A program made the position numbers and the translations under genes. The notes beneath the pieces were generated by a model. The model saw nothing but the letters and a program-made list of their open reading frames with translations, was not told the origin of the DNA and did not search any database. From the NCBI GenBank assembly GCA_947085095.1, contig CAMTVD010000022.1, forward strand, positions 32,001-96,000: a stretch of DNA of 64,000 nucleotides. Reading direction: 5' to 3'. Position 1 is the first letter of the stretch; each line of letters begins with the position of its first letter. Source of the DNA: an uncultured Thermus sp. Lineage in GTDB: Bacteria; Deinococcota; Deinococci; Deinococcales; Thermaceae. Shown here one piece after another: positions 3,387-11,771 of this stretch.

Positions 3387-3463
3387 GCGGGAGTAGCTCA
3401 GTTTGGTAGAGCATCGGCCTTCCAAGCCGAGGGTCGCGGGTTCGAGTCCCGTCTCCCGCTCCA
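3387..3463 (+). tRNA. tRNA-Gly (TCC)
   Basis: GCGGGAG/CTCCCGC acceptor stem, TCGGC-CTTCCAA-GCCGA anticodon arm, TTCGAGT, TCCA end. Confidence 0.97.
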
Positions 3464-3496
3464 CAAAGCCGGGGCTTTGGCCCCGGTGCCTTTCTT

Positions 3497-3572
3497 GGGC
3501 CCGTAGCTCAGGGGACAGAGCAGCCGCCTTCTAAGCGGTAGGTCGGGGGTTCGAATCCCTCCGGGCCCGCCA
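3497..3572 (+). tRNA. tRNA-Arg (TCT); integration target
   Basis: GGGCCCG/CGGGCCC acceptor stem, GCCGC-CTTCTAA-GCGGT anticodon arm, TTCGAAT, GCCA end. Confidence 0.97.
3527..3572 (+). repeat. attL (3' half of tRNA-Arg)
   Basis: CCTTCTAAGCGGTAGGTCGGGGGTTCGAATCCCTCCGGGCCCGCCA; 44/46 identical to 10453-10498. Confidence 0.95.
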
Positions 3573-3613
3573 CCTTCTGAAGGCAAAGCTTCCGCACTCG
3601 GAAGCTTAGGAAT

Positions 3614-3713
3614 GGGTCAAGCTGACCCCCATACTTGACCCCCAAAGGAAGGGCAAACCTCTCCCCCGGCCTCGAGGCCGGGGGGCGGTTTTGGGGGTCA
3701 GCTTTAGGGGTCA
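3614..3713. repeat. TGACCC(CC) repeats, left arm (putative integrase arm-type sites)
   Basis: Direct copies at 3623 and 3636; inverted copies at 3614, 3693 and 3707. Confidence 0.7.
3663..3692. terminator. Perfect 22-bp palindrome between tRNA operon and integrase; probable terminator
   Basis: CCCCCGGCCTCGAGGCCGGGGG followed by GCGGTTTT. Confidence 0.6.
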
Positions 3714-4853
3714 GGCCTGAGGCCTGGGGCCCGCCACCAGGTCCTCCGGGTCAAAGGTCCAGGCCTCCCTCTCCCGGGCCAGCAGGTGGCGGTAAATGTC
3801 CAGCGTGATGGAGGGCCGCGCATGGCCCAGGCGGGCCGCCACCACCTCCGGCGGTGCCCCTTCGGCCAGGAGCATGGAGGCGAAGGTGTGCCGGAGGTCG
3901 TGGGGCCGTATGGGGGGCAGGCCCACACGGGCCACAATCTTCCGAAGGGCGTGGGCCAGGCTATGGGGGTTGAGGGGCTGGGAGGGGTCCTTGGCGCTCG
4001 GGAACACCCAGGCCTCCCGAAGGTCCAGGGGGTCCATACCCGTTTCCACCAGGGCCTCCCACCGGGCCCGCAAGTGCTCCAGGGTCTTGGGGGGAACGGG
4101 AATGGTGCGCAGGCTGGAGGGGGTCTTGGGGGCGGTGAGAAGCCCTTTGCCTCCGAGGTTGGTCCAGGCCCGGCGCACGGCCAGGGTCCCCGCCCTAAAG
4201 TCCAGGTCCCCCCACTTGAGCCCCAGGGCCTCCCCAGGCCGGAGGCCCACCGCCAGGCAAAGGCGCAGGGCCGTGCCTACCTCCCAGGTGGGCCAGGCGT
4301 CCAGGGCCTGAAGGAGGGCGGCCACCTCGTGGGGCTCCAAGGTCCTCCCGGCGGTGCGGCGCGTGGGGGCCTCGAGGCGGATGGAGGCCGTGGGGTCCCG
4401 GTGCACGACTTCCAGGGCCAGGGCCTCCCTGAAGATGGCCCGCAAGTGGGTCAGCGCCTTGCGGATGGCCCTCGGGCCTAGCCCCTGGGCGGCCATGCGG
4501 TCCAAGGCCTCCCGGATATCGGCAGGCCTGATGGCCTGGAGCCGCTTTTCCCCCAAGTGGGCCAGGAGGTAGCCCACTTCCCGCTGGTAGTTGACGAAGG
4601 TCTTGGGGGCCAGGGTGGCCCGCTTGCGGGCAAGCCACCCTTCCGCGAAGGCGGCCAGGGTGGCGGCGCTCTTGGCGGGCAGGAGGCCTTTTTCGTGCTG
4701 GGCCACAAGCTCCCGCGCCTTGCGCAGGGCCTCCTCGGCAGTCTTGCCGAAGACGCTCACCCGCCTATACCGCCCATCGGGCTCCCGGAGGTAAGGGCGC
4801 ACCTCCCAGCGCCCATCCTTACGCTTGCGGGCCTTCAATCCTTTCTTGGGCAT
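3711..4853 (-). CDS. int: Tyrosine recombinase / site-specific integrase
   Basis: N-terminal arm-binding segment (RKDGRWEVR..FGKT); GLRPGEALGLKW, PKT, HDLRHTFAS, LGHARPSITLDIYRH; GGAGG before ATG 4853. Confidence 0.96.
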   Translation of the reverse strand: MPKKGLKARKRKDGRWEVRPYLREPDGRYRRVSVFGKTAEEALRKARELVAQHEKGLLPAKSAATLAAFAEGWLARKRATLAPKTFVNYQREVGYLLAHLGEKRLQAIRPADIREALDRMAAQGLGPRAIRKALTHLRAIFREALALEVVHRDPTASIRLEAPTRRTAGRTLEPHEVAALLQALDAWPTWEVGTALRLCLAVGLRPGEALGLKWGDLDFRAGTLAVRRAWTNLGGKGLLTAPKTPSSLRTIPVPPKTLEHLRARWEALVETGMDPLDLREAWVFPSAKDPSQPLNPHSLAHALRKIVARVGLPPIRPHDLRHTFASMLLAEGAPPEVVAARLGHARPSITLDIYRHLLAREREAWTFDPEDLVAGPRPQA

Positions 4854-4879
4854 AACCTCCTCTACCCTACCATTCCACG

Positions 4880-4990
4880 GGGGGGCGGCGTGGGCTTCGC
4901 GAAAGTTTTGTTTCGCGAAGGTTGCCGGGGGCAACCCGTCAACCCATGACGCGAAGGGGGAGTAGCCTGGGGGTTCGCCCCCGGGTTTTT
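4880..4990 (+). ncRNA. Candidate structured antisense RNA of the integrated element
   Basis: Possible TTGGGC-16-TACCAT promoter (4846-4873); four consecutive hairpins, the last with a TTCG loop followed by TTTTT. Confidence 0.35.
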
Positions 4991-5095
4991 CCCGGCGAAA
5001 GTTTGCGCCATTTCCCCCACGCTGAGGGGAAGGCTCCTCCCCCTCGTGTGGGGAAGGTTCTGGGGCTTTCTAGCCCTGCCGTTTTCCAAAGAGGG

Positions 5096-5377
5096 CTACC
5101 CCTCCTCGTCCAAGGGCCACTCCGCCGCGGTGAAGGAGAGGGGATGGGGCTCCGCCTTCGGCGCGGCGGCCAGGGCCAGCTTGAGGGCCAGGGCGGCCAC
5201 CCGGGCCTTGTGCTCCGGGTTGAGGCCTTCCGCCTCCTCCAGGGCCTTCTCCAGGACCGCCACGGCCTTGCCCCCAAGCCCGGCCAGGCGCGTGCGCCAG
5301 GCCTCGGCCTCCTCCCACCGGGCGCGGGCGGCCTCGTACCGCTCAGTCCACTTCGGCTTCGCCTTCGCCTTCCTCAT
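5096..5377 (-). CDS. Hypothetical small helical protein of the element
   Basis: MRKAKAKPKWTERYEAARARW...; GGAGGTGG before ATG; overlaps end of the upstream ORF. Confidence 0.65.
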   Translation of the reverse strand: MRKAKAKPKWTERYEAARARWEEAEAWRTRLAGLGGKAVAVLEKALEEAEGLNPEHKARVAALALKLALAAAPKAEPHPLSFTAAEWPLDEEG

Positions 5378-5912
5378 CTTCCACCTCCTTGAGCTTGAGC
5401 CCGGAGAAGAGGGCTTCCAGCGCCTTGCGGAAGTCTTTGCCCAGGTCCTCGGCCAGGGCCTCGGGGAAGGCCCGGAGGGCGTACCTCCCCCACATGGGCA
5501 GGCCAAGGTCCAGGGCCCGGTCCTTCCCCCCTCTCCGGGCCTGTGAGAGGTAGCCCAGGTGGGCGCACTTCCTGCAGAGGAGCCCCCGGTGGACCAGGTA
5601 GAGCACCCGGCGGTTCCCCCCGCACCCGGGGCAGACGAAGACCCACTCCACCCCGAAGGGGTGCCTCACCCCCTTTAGGCTCACCACTTGCTCCCCGAAG
5701 GCCAGGCAAACGGGCGGCCTCTCGGGGAGGGGGCGGCCCGTCTTCATCCGCCACCACTCCGCCAGCCACGCGGCCCAGATTTGGGGGGTTCGTTCGGCAA
5801 TCCCCTCCCAGGGCCTTCCCGGTCCCCTCCCCAGCCCGGGGAGAGGGCCGCGCCTTCCCGCCCCGAGGGCGGCCCTAAGCGCCAGGTCCAAGTCCCTGAT
5901 TTCCTCCATCAT
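5343..5912 (-). CDS. Hypothetical zinc-finger protein (CxxC...CxxC)
   Basis: WVFVCPGCGGNRRVLYL...CRKCAHLGYLSQ; Thermus-like codon usage. Confidence 0.75.
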   Translation of the reverse strand: MMEEIRDLDLALRAALGAGRRGPLPGLGRGPGRPWEGIAERTPQIWAAWLAEWWRMKTGRPLPERPPVCLAFGEQVVSLKGVRHPFGVEWVFVCPGCGGNRRVLYLVHRGLLCRKCAHLGYLSQARRGGKDRALDLGLPMWGRYALRAFPEALAEDLGKDFRKALEALFSGLKLKEVEDEEGEGEAEVD

Positions 5913-5937
5913 CGTCTAACCCCCATGCCGAACGGGC

Positions 5938-6273
5938 TTACGCCCCCACCTCCTCACGCCGCTTCACCCGGGCCCGGGCGATGGGCTCAAGCCGGGGCGG
6001 GTTCCCGGCCCAAACTCCCAGAAGCTCCACCTCCTGGGCTTCCGGCCAGGCCTCCTCCAGGAAGCTCAACCGCTCCACCAGCCAGGCCTCGAGGCTCGGG
6101 GCGTTCTGCCCAGGCCAGGCGGCGTGGGCCTCCAGGTCCTCCTCCTCCGGCATGGCCAGAGCCCAGTAGAGCACCCGGCCATCGGCCACCACCCGGACCT
6201 TAGGCGGGCGCATGGCGCGCACCTTGGCCGCGAGGTCCGGGGCCAGGGTGATGAGCTTCCGCCAGGGGCTCAC
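5938..6273 (-). CDS. Hypothetical protein of the element
   Basis: 111 aa; GTGA start/stop overlap with the helicase gene. Confidence 0.7.
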   Translation of the reverse strand: MSPWRKLITLAPDLAAKVRAMRPPKVRVVADGRVLYWALAMPEEEDLEAHAAWPGQNAPSLEAWLVERLSFLEEAWPEAQEVELLGVWAGNPPRLEPIARARVKRREEVGA

Positions 6274-8183
6274 AGCTCCACCTCCACCTCGTCCTCCTCT
6301 TCCCCCCGGGCCGTTTTAGAAAGAGGAGGGGCAACACCTCCCGCATCCCCCGCATCCCCCGCAAACGGCGTCCTGGAGCCGTTTAGTACGCGCGGGGGTT
6401 GTGCGGGGGTTGCGGGGGATTGCGGGGGTTGTGCGGGGGGTTGCGGGGGTTGCCCCTTCCATCCCCCGCGCTCAGGAGTGTCGTCCTGGAGCCGGGTTAC
6501 GGGGGTTGCGGGAGTTGCGGGGGATGCGCCGCTACTCCTTTCTAAAACCCAGAGGAGGCGCTTGACCCGGGCGTCCCGCACCCCCTCCACCTTCAGCCCC
6601 ACCCCCCGGAGGGCGGCCTGGACGCGGGGAAGATGTTTGCCCAGCCCGGCGGGGGTGCGGGGCCACCCTTCGGGCTTGACCCGGGCGTCCTTGAGGCCCA
6701 TCGCCTCCTCCAGGGCGGCCAAGAGTTCCGATGCGGAAAACACGGCCCGGTGCCCCTCCGGCCAGTCGGCGGTGAAGAGGAGGAGGGCCTGGGCCACGGG
6801 GTCGTTGTCCAGAAGGTCCTGGTTGAGCCCGGCCTGCACCGCGTAGAAGGCCGCCACCACCTCCCCGGCCTCAAGGCCCAGGGCGGGGGCGGCGGCCTCA
6901 GCCCAGATGGCCCAATCGGCTAGGCGGGGCAAGGAGGGCAGGGCCTTCCGCGCCACCTCCCAGCGCCTCAGGGCCAGGACCACGGCGTCCAGGAGGGCCC
7001 CCAGGGCCTGGGGGTGGGCCCGGGCAAAGGCCTCCCAAATCTCCCGTTCGGGGCGGCGCTCCCCGTCCTCCAGCCGCACCAGGTTGACCATCGCCACCCG
7101 GTCGGCCAAGTCGTCCCGGAGGATGCCGAAACCTATCCCCGTGAGGATGACGGGCCGTTGCGCCTCCAGGACGTGCTCTTCCGAGTCCGAGTAAAGCTCC
7201 CTCTTGCCCAGCCCGCCCCCGGTGGAAAGGCGGCATAGGGCGTCCGAAAGCCAGGTGGGTATCTTGGAAAGGTTGTCAAAGGCCAGTACCCAGGACCCCT
7301 TGGCGCCCACCATCAGCGCCTCCACGTCCTTGGGCTCAGCCCGTAGGGCGGCCTCCTGGGGGTCCACCAGGGCCTTGAGCACCCTCGCGGCGGTGCTCTT
7401 CCCCGCCCCCTTCTCCCCGGCCAGGACCAGGATGGGGTACGGGCCTTGAGGGGAGAGGGCCCCCACCAGCCACCCCAGGACCAGGGCCACGTCCCGGCGC
7501 TCCCTCAGGGGCAGGAGTTCCAGGAGGGGGGCTAGACTGCCGCCACGCTCAGGGAGGGGGAGGGGCTTCTGGTGCCGCCCCCGGCGGAAACGCACCGGGG
7601 CCTCATGGGCCGGGATGATGCGCCACCCCGAGGGGTCTACCTCCACCACGCTCCAATCGGGCCGGGCCAGGTCCAGGTACACCTTGCCCTCCCACCCGGC
7701 CAGGCGTGTGTGCACCTCGTGCTCCTCCCCCTCAAAGAGGGCCTTCGCCTCCAGGACGGCCAGGGCGTCTTGGAGGGCCTGGGCGTAGAGAGGCTTGCCC
7801 CTTTCCGCGTAGTAGAGCCCGGCGAGCCAGGTGCGAAACTCCTTGCCCCGCAGGGGATGATGCTCCACGTGCCCCTCCCGGGACAGGGTGGCCCAGGCCT
7901 CCTTGCTGGGGGTGTGCCAGAGCTTAGGGCCGGCCTTCAGGGCCAGGTCTACGGCGTCCTTGGCGGCGGTGGCGTCCTCCTTCTTGGGGCCCAAGAAGTC
8001 CTGCCAGGCCAGCCGCACCGCCTGCAGGGTGGCCCCCACCCGCTTGGCGGCCTCCCGCAAGACGGCTTCCGCCTCCACGGCGTCCAGGCCCGCCTCCACG
8101 ATGGCCTCAAAGAGGGACTGCCTGACCCGGCCCCAGTTCTCAGGGGCCAAGCCCTCCAAGATGGCGCGGATGGCCTCACTCAT
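6270..8183 (-). CDS. P-loop ATPase, probable replicative helicase
   Basis: Walker A GEKGAGKST, Walker B-like VLAFDN, RPVILTG, DLADR; directly downstream of Prim-Pol. Confidence 0.85.
   Translation of the reverse strand: MSEAIRAILEGLAPENWGRVRQSLFEAIVEAGLDAVEAEAVLREAAKRVGATLQAVRLAWQDFLGPKKEDATAAKDAVDLALKAGPKLWHTPSKEAWATLSREGHVEHHPLRGKEFRTWLAGLYYAERGKPLYAQALQDALAVLEAKALFEGEEHEVHTRLAGWEGKVYLDLARPDWSVVEVDPSGWRIIPAHEAPVRFRRGRHQKPLPLPERGGSLAPLLELLPLRERRDVALVLGWLVGALSPQGPYPILVLAGEKGAGKSTAARVLKALVDPQEAALRAEPKDVEALMVGAKGSWVLAFDNLSKIPTWLSDALCRLSTGGGLGKRELYSDSEEHVLEAQRPVILTGIGFGILRDDLADRVAMVNLVRLEDGERRPEREIWEAFARAHPQALGALLDAVVLALRRWEVARKALPSLPRLADWAIWAEAAAPALGLEAGEVVAAFYAVQAGLNQDLLDNDPVAQALLLFTADWPEGHRAVFSASELLAALEEAMGLKDARVKPEGWPRTPAGLGKHLPRVQAALRGVGLKVEGVRDARVKRLLWVLERSSGASPATPATPVTRLQDDTPERGGWKGQPPQPPAQPPQSPATPAQPPRVLNGSRTPFAGDAGDAGGVAPPLSKTARGEEEDEVEVEL
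6314..6547. repeat. Iteron-like (T)GCGGGGG repeat array; putative replication origin
   Basis: About a dozen GCGGGGG/CCCCCGC-type units in both orientations, bounded by inverted TTTTAGAAAG / CTTTCTAAAA. Confidence 0.65.
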
Positions 8184-9066
8184 GGGCCACCCCCTTCGCC
8201 CGGGCCCGGCGGTTCAAGGCCCAGCGCATCCGAGGGGGGAGGGGGTGAGGGTCCTCTAGGATGAGCGGCCTCGCCTCTCCTACCCTCAGCCCCCACCGCG
8301 CCGCATCCCGGGCCTCCCGCTCAGGTAGCCCGGCCCGCATAGCGGCGGCTACCAGGGCCTCTTCCGCCTCCTCCGGGGAGAGTCCATGGGGGATTAGCCC
8401 CCCCGCGGCCACGGCGTAACGGATGAGGGTGTTGTGCCTCTGCCCCTCCGGGGTGCGGGCCACTTGGGCGGCGTAGGCCTGGAGAAGGGCCTGCAGGCGC
8501 TTGGGGCTCGTCCCCCCCTCGGGAGTCCACACGCTCCTGGGAGGAGGAGGCGGCGGGGGGAGGAGCTTCAAGAGGAGGCCCCGGGGCACCGGGGGAAGCC
8601 CCTCCGGCCTCACCAGGGGCACCTCCCACTCGTAGCCCCTCCCGTCCTTGAGCCCGGTAGGCGCGGCCACCACATAAGCCCGACCCATGCCCCGGAGGTC
8701 TACCCCCTCCAAAACCCGCACGCTGGCGGAAAGCCTCACCCCCTCGGGAAGCCGGAGGAAAAGGTGTACCCCTCCCTTGGGAGTCCTTTGCCTTGGGGCG
8801 GCCTCGAGGGCGGGGTGCTCCTGCCTCAACCCCTCCCAGGCCGTGGGGTCGTCAAAGTCCAGGACCAAGACCCCCTCCGGGGCCAAGAGCCCCACCCCGG
8901 CCTCGGGGCAGGCCCGCCACCAGGCCTCGAGGGTGGCGGGGTCCTGGGAGGCCTCCTTGAGCCCGTGGGGCACCAGCCGGGGGTGGGGGCGCTTCTCCCC
9001 GGGGAGGAGGGGAAGGACGGCGTAGCCCAGACGGGCGTAGCCCAGGACGTGCTCAATCGGCCTCAT
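8176..9066 (-). CDS. Bifunctional DNA primase/polymerase (Prim-Pol) with C-terminal PriCT-like domain
   Basis: YARLGYAVLPL..EKRP, VLVLDFD, TPKGGVHLF, VDLRG..YVVAAP; poly-Pro linker; EGQRHNTL. Confidence 0.9.
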   Translation of the reverse strand: MRPIEHVLGYARLGYAVLPLLPGEKRPHPRLVPHGLKEASQDPATLEAWWRACPEAGVGLLAPEGVLVLDFDDPTAWEGLRQEHPALEAAPRQRTPKGGVHLFLRLPEGVRLSASVRVLEGVDLRGMGRAYVVAAPTGLKDGRGYEWEVPLVRPEGLPPVPRGLLLKLLPPPPPPPRSVWTPEGGTSPKRLQALLQAYAAQVARTPEGQRHNTLIRYAVAAGGLIPHGLSPEEAEEALVAAAMRAGLPEREARDAARWGLRVGEARPLILEDPHPLPPRMRWALNRRARAKGVAHE

Positions 9067-9247
9067 TACTCACCTCCTCCTCCTGGGCCAGGGCCGCATC
9101 AATGAGGAGGTCAATGCGCTTGCGGGCGTCAATGCGCTCCCCCCAGGGAAGGGCCAGGAAGATAGCTTGAAAAGCGTCTAGCAAGATGGCGGTTTCCTCT
9201 TTGGCCCCCTCGGGCGTTATGATGACCACAACGGCACGCACGGCCAC
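9053..9247 (-). CDS. Small hypothetical protein
   Basis: 64 aa packed between xis-like and Prim-Pol genes; carries the Prim-Pol RBS (GGAGGTGA). Confidence 0.55.
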   Translation of the reverse strand: MAVRAVVVIITPEGAKEETAILLDAFQAIFLALPWGERIDARKRIDLLIDAALAQEEEVSNEAD

Positions 9248-9250
9248 CCC

Positions 9251-9457
9251 CTACCGCCCCCGAGGCCCCCCCTCGGGGCTCGCCTCCTCGTCCAGGGGCA
9301 TCCCCAGCAGGCGCTCCAGCTCCTTCCTGGGGATGATGAGCCTCGCCCCCAGGCGGGCCGCCCTCAGCTCCCCCCGCCAGACCAGCCGATAAATGTGGTT
9401 TGGATGGACTCCAAGTGCCGAAGCCGCTTCCTTGACGCTCAGTCCAAGCTTACGCAT
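9251..9457 (-). CDS. Excisionase/AlpA-like helix-turn-helix protein
   Basis: LSVKEAASALGVHPNHIYRLVWRGELRAARLGARLIIPRKELERLL is a typical excisionase-family wHTH. Confidence 0.88.
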   Translation of the reverse strand: MRKLGLSVKEAASALGVHPNHIYRLVWRGELRAARLGARLIIPRKELERLLGMPLDEEASPEGGPRGR

Positions 9458-9536
9458 GTTTTTGCCCCGCTTTTCCGCGCCCAGGGAGGGGCACCCTGGA
9501 CGGGCCTGACGACCTAAAGCCGCAAAACCTACGGCT

Positions 9537-10205
9537 TCAGGCCGCCAGGGGCGGGGCAACAGGGGCGATGACCAGGCTTCGGGTCAGGTTTTGCGTGGGG
9601 TCTTTTGGCGGTGCCCTTTCCTGGTAGCTTTCGGAAAGGGTCTTCTGGGGTTCGTGAGTCAGGCGGATGAGGTCAAAGACCAGAATAAGGAGCGCGCTCA
9701 GAGCTTTAAGTGCGGCTTTAAGAGCTTCGTTAAGCGTCTTGCCGCGCCTTAGGCTCTGCAGGTAAACGAAGAAGAGCTTAAGCACCCGCTCATGGGGCAA
9801 CCTCCGGAAGCGGATCCGCGTCCCCCCGCGCTTGGCGGCCCTCCCCCTGAAGAAAACACCTTGAGCAAGGTGCCGCCCTACTAAAGAGAGGTAGTTCAAT
9901 AGAGGCCTAAGTGCCTCAAAAAGGTTATCCCGCGCGTCTTGCAGACTTCTGATTACAGCCCCTGCCTCTCCGGCCAGGGGGGCCATCGCCTCAAGTGTCT
10001 GGTGTAGCGTCCTCCTGGCGGGTTCCGCCGCCTTAAGTGCCTGGTGTAGAGTCCTCCTAGCGGTTTCCACCGCCTCGTTAAGGTTCCTTAAGGTTTCCTG
10101 GGGAAGGGTCCAGGTGGCGGCGTAGGCCTCAACAGAGGCCTGAAGGTTCCTCACGGCTTCGCTTTGGGCGAAGTGTTGTAGCTTGGCCGTGAGTCCCCCT
10201 TGCAT
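9537..10205 (-). CDS. Hypothetical protein, first gene of the element operon; atypical composition
   Basis: 222-aa ORF with its own promoter; internal ARRTLHQ duplication. Confidence 0.7.
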   Translation of the reverse strand: MQGGLTAKLQHFAQSEAVRNLQASVEAYAATWTLPQETLRNLNEAVETARRTLHQALKAAEPARRTLHQTLEAMAPLAGEAGAVIRSLQDARDNLFEALRPLLNYLSLVGRHLAQGVFFRGRAAKRGGTRIRFRRLPHERVLKLFFVYLQSLRRGKTLNEALKAALKALSALLILVFDLIRLTHEPQKTLSESYQERAPPKDPTQNLTRSLVIAPVAPPLAA

Positions 10206-10214
10206 CTTGCCCCT

Positions 10215-10243
10215 ACCATAGCACGCCCCCTCTTCACTCGCAA
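10215..10243 (-). promoter_or_regulatory. Sigma-A promoter driving the element operon
   Basis: Minus strand TTGCGA-17nt-TATGGT with TG extension, 9 nt before ATG 10205. Confidence 0.65.
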
Positions 10244-10310
10244 TACCATGACATCACCCCACAAAACCTTTTCTTGCAAAGGGTTCTTTTCGTGGGATAG
10301 CTTCACGGGT

Positions 10311-10353
10311 TGACCCCCAAACTTGACCCCCATTGACCCCCAAAACTGACCCC
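10311..10353. repeat. Four direct TGACCCC repeats, right arm (putative arm-type sites)
   Basis: Copies at 10311, 10324, 10334 and 10347. Confidence 0.75.
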
Positions 10354-10452
10354 TAACCGGAGGTAATCCAAGGTAATGCCATCCCGGGGAAAACGCGTGT
10401 AGGACGCCGATTTTTGCAATAACGGGTTATCGGAGGTTAGGGGTCTTCGCCT

Positions 10453-10498
10453 CCTTCTAAGCGGTAGGTCGGGGGTTCAAATCCCTCCGGGCCCACCA
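10453..10498 (+). repeat. attR (displaced tRNA-Arg 3' half)
   Basis: CCTTCTAAGCGGTAGGTCGGGGGTTCAAATCCCTCCGGGCCCACCA. Confidence 0.95.
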
Positions 10499-10652
10499 GG
10501 TCAGGGACGCAAAACTTTACCCCTCGGTAGCGTGGCCGGGGGTGCTTTGCTGGTGGAAGGCCTCCCCCAGGAGGGCTGGTCTGGCTGGGGAAGGGGCGTT
10601 TGTAGCTTGCGAGCCCTTGCCCCAAGGGGTAGGCTTGCGGGTGGAGGTTGGT

Positions 10653-11771
10653 GTGGAAACCCTCGAGGCGGTTCGCGAGCTGGCGCGGCGCTTCGCCCGG
10701 GAGAGGGTTCTGCCCGAGGCCCTGAGGCTGGACCGGGAGGCCCGCTTTCCCCGGGAGCTTTTCCGGGAGGCCGCGGCTTTGGGCTTTCCCGCCCTGGTGG
10801 TGCCCGAGGCCTTTGGCGGCGCGGGGCTTGGGCCCAAGGCCTTGGCCCTGGTGGCGGAGGAGCTGGCCTACGCCTGCCCTGGGGTGGCGGCGGCCCTCCT
10901 CCTCAACAACCTGGTGGCCGACGCCCTCCTCCTCTCCGGTAGCCCGTACGCCCAGGCCTTCTTGCCCCGCCTGAAGGAAGAGGTGGCCTCCTACGCCCTG
11001 ACCGAGCCCCATGCGGGCTCGGACGTGGCGGCCATCCGCACCCGGGCGGAGAAGGCTCCGGGGGGCTTCCGGCTTTTTGGGCGCAAGACCTGGATCAGCC
11101 ACGCCCCTGAGGCCAGCTTTTTTGTGGTCTTTGCCAAGGTGGCCGAGGGGCGGGAGGGCATCGCCGCCTTCTTGGTGGAGCGGAAGGAGGGGGTGGAGGT
11201 GGGCCCGCCCCTGCCCAAGATGGGGCAGAAGGCCTCCCCCGCAGCCGAGGTGGCCCTGGAGGGGGTCTTCGTCCCCGAGGAGGCCCTCATCGCCCGGGAG
11301 GGTTTCCGCCTGGCCATGAGGGTCTTTGACCGCTCCCGGCCCATGGTGGCGGCCATGGCCGTGGGCCTCCTGCGCCGGGCCTTGGACGAGGCTCTGGCCT
11401 ACGCCAGGGTGCGGGAAGCCTTCGGCAAGCCCCTTTTTGAGCACCAGGGGGTGGGGTTCAAGCTGGCGGAGATGGCCATGGACCTCGAGGCCGCCCGCCT
11501 CCTCACCCACCGGGCCGCCGGCCTGGCGGAGAGGGGAGAGGCCAACGCTCTGGAGGCGGCCATGGCCAAGGCCTTCGCCGCGGACGCCGCGGTGCGGGGG
11601 GTGTCGGAGGCCCTCCAGGTCTTCGGGGGGAACGGCTACTCGGAGGAGTACCCCATGGCCAAGCTCTACCGGGACGCCAAGGTGCTCCAGATCTACGAGG
11701 GCACCTCGGAGATCCAGCGGGTGATTGTGCTTAGAGAGCTCCTTAGGAGGGAAAGATGGGAGAGCCGGTGA
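10653..11771 (+). CDS. Acyl-CoA dehydrogenase
   Basis: YALTEPHAGSDV, GRKTWIS, REAFGKPL, QVFGGNGY, IYEGTSEIQR; GTG start after GGAGG. Confidence 0.95.
   Translation: METLEAVRELARRFARERVLPEALRLDREARFPRELFREAAALGFPALVVPEAFGGAGLGPKALALVAEELAYACPGVAAALLLNNLVADALLLSGSPYAQAFLPRLKEEVASYALTEPHAGSDVAAIRTRAEKAPGGFRLFGRKTWISHAPEASFFVVFAKVAEGREGIAAFLVERKEGVEVGPPLPKMGQKASPAAEVALEGVFVPEEALIAREGFRLAMRVFDRSRPMVAAMAVGLLRRALDEALAYARVREAFGKPLFEHQGVGFKLAEMAMDLEAARLLTHRAAGLAERGEANALEAAMAKAFAADAAVRGVSEALQVFGGNGYSEEYPMAKLYRDAKVLQIYEGTSEIQRVIVLRELLRRERWESR

Follow-up and report, generated by a model that had tools for sequence, protein, structure and literature searches.

We analysed a 64,000-nt stretch of DNA, here called the window, from an uncultured Thermus sp. 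(GenBank assembly GCA_947085095.1, contig CAMTVD010000022.1, positions 32,001 to 96,000). The window carries a 6.9-kb ICETh2-like mobile element beside a tRNA-Arg gene, and our subject is the sole internal non-coding stretch of that element, the gap at 4855-5095. It lies between the stop of a 93-aa open reading frame (ORF; 5096) and the start of the integrase gene int (4853). The original prediction had described a row of hairpins and repeats in this gap and interpreted them as a plus-strand regulatory RNA of about 110 nt. Every one of these hairpins and repeats is present at the coordinates given below, and the region is non-coding. Our analysis points to a different role for the first of them: hairpin 1 is most likely a copy of a host dif-type site carried by the mobile element, and not part of a regulatory RNA. 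The features of the gap and its edges are the following.

3711..4853, minus strand: int, a 380-aa tyrosine integrase (Pfam Phage_integrase, 5.9e-29; N-terminal SAM-like domains; PHROG 1)
4846-4873, plus strand: TTGGGC-16-TACCAT, originally proposed as the promoter of the RNA
4872-4864, minus strand: likely int promoter, an extended -10 box TGGTAGGGT 10 nt before the ATG, the mirror of TACCAT
4895-4920, unstranded: hairpin 1 motif, CTTCGCGAAA-GTTTTG-TTTCGCGAAG
4896..4919, unstranded: the 9-6-9 palindrome of hairpin 1, TTCGCGAAA-GTTTTG-TTTCGCGAA, a candidate Xer (dif-like) core site
4899 and 4995, unstranded: the repeat GCGAAAGTTT
4921..4935, unstranded: hairpin 2, GTTGCC-GGG-GGCAAC
4937..4951, unstranded: hairpin 3, the second conserved palindrome, CGTCA-ACCCA-TGACG
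4950, unstranded: the sequence CGCGAAG
4966..4990, plus strand: hairpin 4, terminator-like, CCTGGGGG-TTCG-CCCCCGGG (4966-4985) and then TTTTT (4986-4990)
4994..5009, unstranded: a conserved 16-mer, GGCGAAAGTTTGCGCC, identical in the allele of genome G037, which is ~70% identical over 4921-5077
5012..5060, unstranded: hairpin 5, a long imperfect stem (~5012-5055) in the fold, with the direct repeats TGAGGGGAAGGCTC and TGTGGGGAAGGTTC, 24 nt apart
5063..5076, unstranded: hairpin 6, GGGC-TTTCTA-GCCC, 20 nt past the stop of the upstream operon
5096..5377, minus strand: a 93-aa gene of no family, the last gene of the PrimPol-helicase operon

Hairpin 1 has the build of a dif or cer core, in which two inverted arms of ~9-11 bp enclose a centre of 6-8 bp, and its arms are found throughout the genus. 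With up to two mismatches allowed, TTCGCGAAA-N6-TTTCGCGAA is present in 31 of 32 Thermus genomes, each with 1-7 copies; the reversed pattern, which served as a control, gave one match in one genome. Conservation across 70 or more copies is confined to the arms, the 6-bp centre being free to vary, and the arms turn up in unrelated settings, on the chromosome, on plasmids and in other elements. One variant that is frequent, TTCGCCAAA-N6-TTTTGCGAA, carries an inter-arm mismatch on both strands in at least nine copies with differing centres. A mismatch that is fixed in this way is to be expected where a protein binds, but not in a stem of RNA or DNA. When 68 genomes of the family were searched with the gap at the DNA level, full-length relatives were present in only three (G038, 100%; G040, 96%; G037, 72%), and short matches in three other Thermus genomes were confined to gap positions 41-67, which are hairpin 1. 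Exact pattern scans returned at least 119 stretches in genome contigs from many phyla and 29 in viral contigs, which is what chance would give for 16 specified bases in collections of that size. Of these matches, only two Thermus loci (L136, L168) were used.

Many of the copies keep company with recombinase genes. A tyrosine recombinase ORF lies in the locus for 38 of the 75 entries examined, some of which are the same place counted twice. The source genome has three copies of the palindrome, each upstream of such a gene: the window copy upstream of int, a copy on contig 21 upstream of a 75-aa gene and a 394-aa integrase gene, and a copy on contig 38 that abuts the gene of a 312-aa recombinase. 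Among the matches listed, a copy with the centre of the contig 38 site, GGTACA, is found in 20 of 25 Thermus genomes. This chromosomal copy and its neighbor are placed as follows.

C38:23476-23499 (L268:3001-3024), unstranded: chromosomal copy, a 24-bp palindrome with the centre GGTACA
L268:2063-3001, minus strand: 312-aa Xer-like gene, adjoining the chromosomal palindrome

The chromosomal copy abuts the extended -10 box of the Xer-like gene. On the gene side, this box (for example TGTTATAAT or TGATATAAT) begins 2-5 nt from the palindrome, and on the far side the sequence is wholly different between species from the first base past the arm. The 312-aa protein can be aligned over its full length with XerC (173 bits), XerD (162 bits) and the archaeal XerA (135 bits), with all three scores below the cut-offs. 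Six proteins of the source genome have Phage_integrase hits; the 380-aa and 394-aa integrases are weaker XerC/D matches (~80-86 bits), and the remaining three are, by eye, phage-type proteins of ~380-400 aa. In five finished Thermus genomes, canonical XerC/XerD were not found and no protein passed the XerD cut-off, and the 312-aa gene was the best chromosomal hit in all five. The distance from the chromosomal copy to dnaA along the shorter arc is 47.6, 49.2, 45.4, 49.7 and 47.1% of the chromosome in these genomes, which are relatives and amount to fewer than five independent observations; the terminus position was judged from this distance alone. Because it adjoins the promoter of the sole Xer-like gene and lies opposite dnaA, the chromosomal copy is likely the Thermus dif site. 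We found no description of a Thermus dif in the open literature searched, and the Xer review PMC5357621 contains neither 'Thermus' nor 'Deinococc'.

By sequence comparison, the arms of the palindrome co-vary with the adjacent recombinase. In another genus of the family, the orthologue of the 312-aa protein (60% identity) lies next to a 9-6-9 palindrome with other arms, TTATGGAAA-TCGGCA-TTTCCATAA, 5 nt before a TGCTAGGAT box. A paralogue that is 46-50% identical pairs with the variant TTCGCCAAA-N6-TTTTGCGAA on plasmid-like contigs of several Thermaceae (L253, L275, L281, L291-L293, L297, L299, L301 and L310), and these loci look like plasmid-borne recombinase-and-site modules.

On mobile DNA, the palindrome stands upstream of the first gene of the int cassette, whether int or exc, at 13 int-linked loci, among which there are six or more different promoter sequences. 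Nine of the 13 have a strict TGnTAnnnT box 4-12 nt before the ATG, with 25-37 nt between the palindrome and the start of the box; in the remaining four the box is of the TAGCAT type and lacks the TG. That the palindrome constantly stands at or shortly before xer, int and exc-int promoters, and that recombinase genes lie downstream of all three source-genome copies, is what one would expect of a plain operator, bound by a non-Xer transcription factor of the host or the element that controls recombinase genes and involving no recombination. We judge such an operator to be quite improbable, since no regulon beyond recombinase genes is seen in the source genome and since it leaves unexplained the terminus position of the chromosomal copy and the co-variation of the arms with the adjacent recombinase. 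It also fails to explain why some copies sit on small plasmids with no recombinase gene nearby, or why homology breaks at the edges of the palindrome.

Some contigs of 14-20 kb carry sites with the same centre 9-10 kb apart, which suggests small plasmids with one site each that were assembled as dimers. For the homology breaks, we compared the 150-nt flanks of 70 sites in 2415 pairs, calling a side alike at 80% identity or more and unlike below 60%. There were 45 pairs alike on one side only and 23 alike on both. Four loci (L006, L276, L259 and L305) have a common left flank, left arm and centre and diverge fully directly past the right arm, and L286 consists of the left side of L008 with the right arm and flank of L287. 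Identity in these alignments ends at the outer edge of the arm. Between relatives, the break in homology often falls exactly at the palindrome. The flanks are also enriched in the half-site GCGAAA/TTTCGC (21 observed against 5.1 expected, in 20 of the 70 sites, many of which are kin), which is only a hint that extra Xer half-sites may serve as accessory sites.

These observations lead us to a model to which we give an even chance: the gap would serve maintenance and control at the level of the DNA and would not be a single RNA gene, and hairpin 1 would be a mimic of the Thermus dimer-resolution site, comparable to ColE1 cer. What the sequences show directly is the identity of the arms, their distribution, the terminus position, the neighbouring Xer gene and the breakpoints, while binding, catalysis, multimer resolution and any effect on int are inferred. 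Int would excise the 6.9-kb element as a circle. The two inverted 9-bp arms would bind the host's single Xer-type tyrosine recombinase, which would exchange strands across the 6-bp crossover centre and so resolve multimers of the circle, as at cer. Now and then Xer may also recombine the site with its counterparts on other elements or plasmids, which would explain why module swaps have their breaks at the palindrome. As the site covers the -35 zone, 26 nt upstream of the int -10 box, bound Xer may in addition damp int. The CGTCA-N5-TGACG palindrome, the terminator-like hairpin, the 16-mer and the direct repeats would most simply be an origin and/or an insulator for the replication operon. In a bolder version, which we think unlikely, the host Xer would do three jobs, acting as the 'missing repressor' of int, resolving multimers and offering a point of crossover where otherwise unrelated elements exchange whole int cassettes, and a plus-strand RNA of the cer/Rcd kind with its end at 4990 could signal that the element is multimeric or excised.

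Several points weigh against the dif-mimic model. The genomes are related, so the distribution and terminus counts overstate the support, and three genomes (G050, G056 and G059) are without a chromosomal-type site that matches the pattern. The swap between L305 and the window breaks ~30 nt to the right of the palindrome, and a clean crossover between the two relatives of L286 would not have given its hybrid centre. A plain operator could likewise account for the steady position shortly before int promoters, and the terminator-like hairpin on the plus strand has no role in the model beyond insulation. Finally, the PrimPol and P-loop genes suggest a replicating carrier, but the studied relative, ICETh2, shows little or no replication after excision (PMC7693054), so that the need for multimer resolution is uncertain.

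Should the model be right, one Xer-like gene and a 24-bp site would be a concrete candidate for the system by which Thermus resolves chromosome dimers, and the ICETh2 family would gain a cis-acting part. Because homology so often breaks at the palindrome, it would also offer a mechanism for the mosaic structure of ICETh2-like elements. For Thermus genetics, it would provide a native thermostable recombinase-and-site pair and a plasmid-stability site.

The model has both likenesses to and differences from known Xer systems. As in ColE1 cer, a host dif-type core would be carried on a small mobile replicon, with ~100-200 bp of conserved non-coding sequence around it. Within cer there are, in addition, a promoter and a short RNA with structure (PMC5357621 and PMC4393325). 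It differs in being served by XerC and XerD, whereas Thermus appears to have one Xer-like recombinase, and the carrier here is a tRNA-integrating element with its own integrase, with the site on the upstream edge of the int promoter. Accessory-protein sites and the RNA belong to cer, whereas the window site is known from sequence alone. In streptococci and lactococci, XerS and difSL form one module of a single dedicated Xer-type recombinase and its site (PMC1914069). The Thermus chromosomal site likewise lies beside its single recombinase gene and opposite dnaA. However, the 312-aa Thermus protein scores only 63 bits against XerS, far from its best matches to XerC, XerD and XerA, and the Thermus site, whose function is predicted, has 9-6-9 symmetry and overlaps the promoter of the gene. 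Integrative mobile elements exploiting Xer (IMEX), such as the CTX and TLC phages and the gonococcal genetic island, carry a copy of the host dif and depend on host Xer. IMEX are mentioned in PMC4763002. They are without an integrase and insert into dif, whereas the window element has Int, presumed arm-type repeats and an att site in tRNA-Arg; the putative dif mimic would therefore not be its integration site.

We also weighed the RNA on its own terms. In this reading, a plus-strand small RNA of ~110 nt (~4881-4990) would end at the UUCG/U-run hairpin and regulate int or the operon, or, as a variant, an Rcd-like RNA would lie within the Xer site. The part of this proposal that holds up best is the terminator-like hairpin. 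On the plus strand, hairpin 4 has an 8-bp G+C stem, CCUGGGGG-UUCG-CCCCCGGG, with a U.G pair and a following UUUUU, as a terminator should; the minus strand has no U-run, and the U.G pair, like a G.U pair in G037, would be a mismatch on the other strand. A consensus scan did not call hairpin 4 as a terminator, probably since extension of the stem consumes two T. There is also a precedent in ColE1 cer, which encodes the 70-nt Rcd RNA inside its Xer site (PMC5357621 and PMC4393325), and several int -10 boxes are, by eye, near-symmetrical and could fire both ways.

Folding was compared with 200 dinucleotide shuffles per stretch. The gap 4855-5095 folds as plus-strand RNA with -128.6 kcal/mol (z -4.15; 0 of 200 shuffles as good) and as minus-strand RNA with -115.2 kcal/mol (z -3.61; 0 of 200), and the plus strand folded as DNA gives a z of -3.64 (1 of 200). 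The stretch proposed as the RNA, 4881-4992, reaches z -3.37 on the plus strand (2 of 200). The excess of structure in the window copy is real, yet it is not strand-specific, since both strands beat their shuffles. The diverged G037 allele has no such advantage over its shuffles (plus strand, z -0.82, 34 of 200 as good; minus strand, z -1.81, 9 of 200).

The other parts of the RNA proposal fared less well. The letters of TTGGGC-16-TACCAT are present, but TACCAT mirrors the int -10 box and so is not independent evidence of a promoter, and the consensus scan called no promoter-like site in 3400-10700. An Rfam search of the whole window at gathering thresholds returned three tRNAs only. Two-sided change was seen in three of 54 predicted pairs, in a comparison of four sequences from two lineages that has low power. 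Elsewhere in the element, complementarity extends to 12 nt at most, in a G+C-rich stretch of coding sequence. Hairpin 1, the largest stem of the proposed RNA, behaves as a genus-wide DNA site, and, provided that int is transcribed from its own promoter, the RNA and the int mRNA would have no overlap. The original prediction had likened the RNA to P4 CI RNA and plasmid countertranscripts, with a small structured RNA replacing the missing repressor; at the window site, however, the promoter, target complementarity and covariation were not found. We regard the regulatory RNA as unlikely.

For a different organism ('organism B'), RNA-seq contigs from runs X15, X17, X18 and X19 contain a homologue of the 93-aa and 189-aa genes with ~93-95% identity over window positions ~5082-5600. 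This homology starts at 5082, past the last hairpin; in the hairpin region itself the element of 'organism B' differs, so these contigs argue neither for nor against the RNA. Across six RNA runs of 'organism B', 12-18% of words matched, and short G+C-rich fragments were also seen.

Comparison with G037 sets one part of the gap apart. From ~5078 to ~5900, G037 and the window are near-identical (0-4 differences per 40 nt), whereas 4921-5077 is only ~70% identical, with a sharp step from ~70% to ~100% at ~5078 (L004, G037). Given this low identity beside ~800 nt of near-identical operon, the ~160 bp of 4921-5077 is, by sequence, a separate allele. Further along, G037 has ~280 extra bases at window position ~5936. 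Within the allele, G037 keeps CGTCA-N5-TGACG, the 16-mer with its preceding T-run, and a weaker hairpin 4 with a shifted 7-bp stem and UUUU. The two direct repeats at hairpin 5 (the D2 family) are of the form GGGG(A/T)AGG(C/T)TC, and a similar pair can be seen by eye in G037. Hairpin 6 is swapped for another small hairpin there. Hairpin 2 has the weakest functional claim of the gap hairpins because it is not kept in G037 or L305. The 16-mer falls within the least G+C-rich part of the gap and resembles one arm of hairpin 1 (CCGGCGAAAGTT against TTCGCGAAAGTT, 75% identical). The CGTCA-N5-TGACG palindrome, with its arms kept and its centre free, recurs in the flanks of eight of the 70 palindrome sites, in four different right-hand modules, and adjoins iteron-like repeats in two further modules; the whole 2.08-Mb genome holds a single copy with N5 spacing. 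A metagenome scan with a conserved 25-mer found two loci only.

Other ICETh2-like elements have iteron-like direct repeats where the window has hairpins 3-6 (L006:1560-1750, three 23-nt copies; L258, ~70-130 nt from the palindrome; L287:1915-1975), and these repeats are likely origins.

An origin of replication in the window gap is a tentative alternative that we hold at a low probability. Hairpins 3-6, the 16-mer and the two direct repeats would be the start site for replication of the circle by the PrimPol and P-loop helicase, as in the plasmid pRN1, and hairpin 1 could be a Xer site all the same. An insulator is another role that hairpins 3-6 could have, and the features of this part of the gap suit an origin or an insulator no less well than they suit an RNA. 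The position is right: the gap is directly downstream of the replication operon, and pRN1 requires a 100-nt stem-loop downstream of orf904, beside a putative terminator (PMC4234260). Likewise, the recurrence of CGTCA-N5-TGACG beside iteron-like repeats in four different modules, and the ~70% allele beside near-identity, fit origins, which behave so as specificity determinants. On the other hand, the window is without a clear iteron array, having two 14-nt repeats only, and by ordinary standards it has no A+T-rich unwinding stretch. Overall hairpin stability is lost in the G037 allele, and conservation of the stems is weak, as the pair counts and the G037 folding given above indicate. In ICETh2 itself, replication is slight and Ppol is dispensable (PMC7693054). 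What the gap shares with pRN1 is a layout: immediately after a prim-pol/helicase operon comes DNA rich in hairpins, with a putative terminator. The sequences themselves are not alike, and pRN1 is a plasmid of archaea.

The element in which this gap lies is delimited by a direct repeat of the 3' half of tRNA-Arg(TCT), at 3523-3572 and 10449-10500; a wider span of the repeat, 3523-3605 against 10449-10531, is 81% identical. Outside the gap and its edges, its main features are these.

3497..3572, plus strand: tRNA-Arg(TCT), from ARAGORN and Rfam; its 3' half, 3523-3572, is the left att repeat copy
6270..8183, minus strand: a 637-aa P-loop protein, with weak P-loop matches
8176..9066, minus strand: PrimPol (Pfam Prim-Pol, 4.8e-30)
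10311..10500, unstranded: right end of the element, with four TGACCCCC repeats at 10311-10350 and the att repeat at 10449-10500

All genes of the element are on the minus strand: int, three small ORFs of no family, the P-loop protein, PrimPol, an HTH_17 protein and a 222-aa ORF. The P-loop protein and PrimPol (6270..9066) are presumed to form its replication module, and no capsid or terminase (packaging) genes were found in the element. The alternative named in the original prediction, a cos/pac-like site or single-strand origin, was set aside in view of this lack of packaging genes. The DNA of the window is Thermus DNA, the nearest named relative of int being that of T. arciformis (91%); this and a Meiothermus relative (40%) were the only close ones, and 78 further loci with distant Firmicutes and Actinomycetota integrases were set aside.

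Copies of TGACCCCC, direct and inverted, also lie at the left end, at 3615-3645 and 3691-3716, and are presumably the integrase arm-type sites of attP. As these repeats flank the att repeat at both ends, attP would be assigned to the element ends. A location of attP in the hairpin gap was rejected, with the att core and the arm repeats at the ends and none within 4855-5095. Between tRNA-Arg and the int stop, a G+C-rich hairpin at 3662-3695, CCCCCGGCC-TCGA-GGCCGGGGG and then GCGGTTTTGG, is likely the terminator of the tRNA operon; on the other strand it lies just beyond the end of int. Protection against tRNA read-through was rejected as the purpose of the plus-strand terminator in the gap, since this hairpin and its T-run (~3662-3695) already follow tRNA-Arg.

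In its overall plan, the element fits what has been published on ICETh2-like elements, which are 7-12 kb long, sit in a tRNA gene, have direct repeats of 45-50 nt and encode an integrase, a Ppol and a helicase or P-loop protein (PMC7693054). We found no discussion of the non-coding DNA of the family in the ICETh2 literature searched. Two differences from ICETh2 of T. thermophilus HB27 stand out: the window element is in tRNA-Arg and ICETh2 in tRNA-Val, and the window element is without an excisionase gene beside int, its HTH_17 gene lying at the far end. The source genome contains a second element, at C21:26207-27797 (L269:3008-4598), in which the palindrome is followed by a TGCTATAAT box, a leaderless 75-aa gene, the gene of the 394-aa integrase and a tRNA gene. 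Its layout is like that of Int2/Exc2 of ICETh2, with the 75-aa gene in the excisionase-like position.

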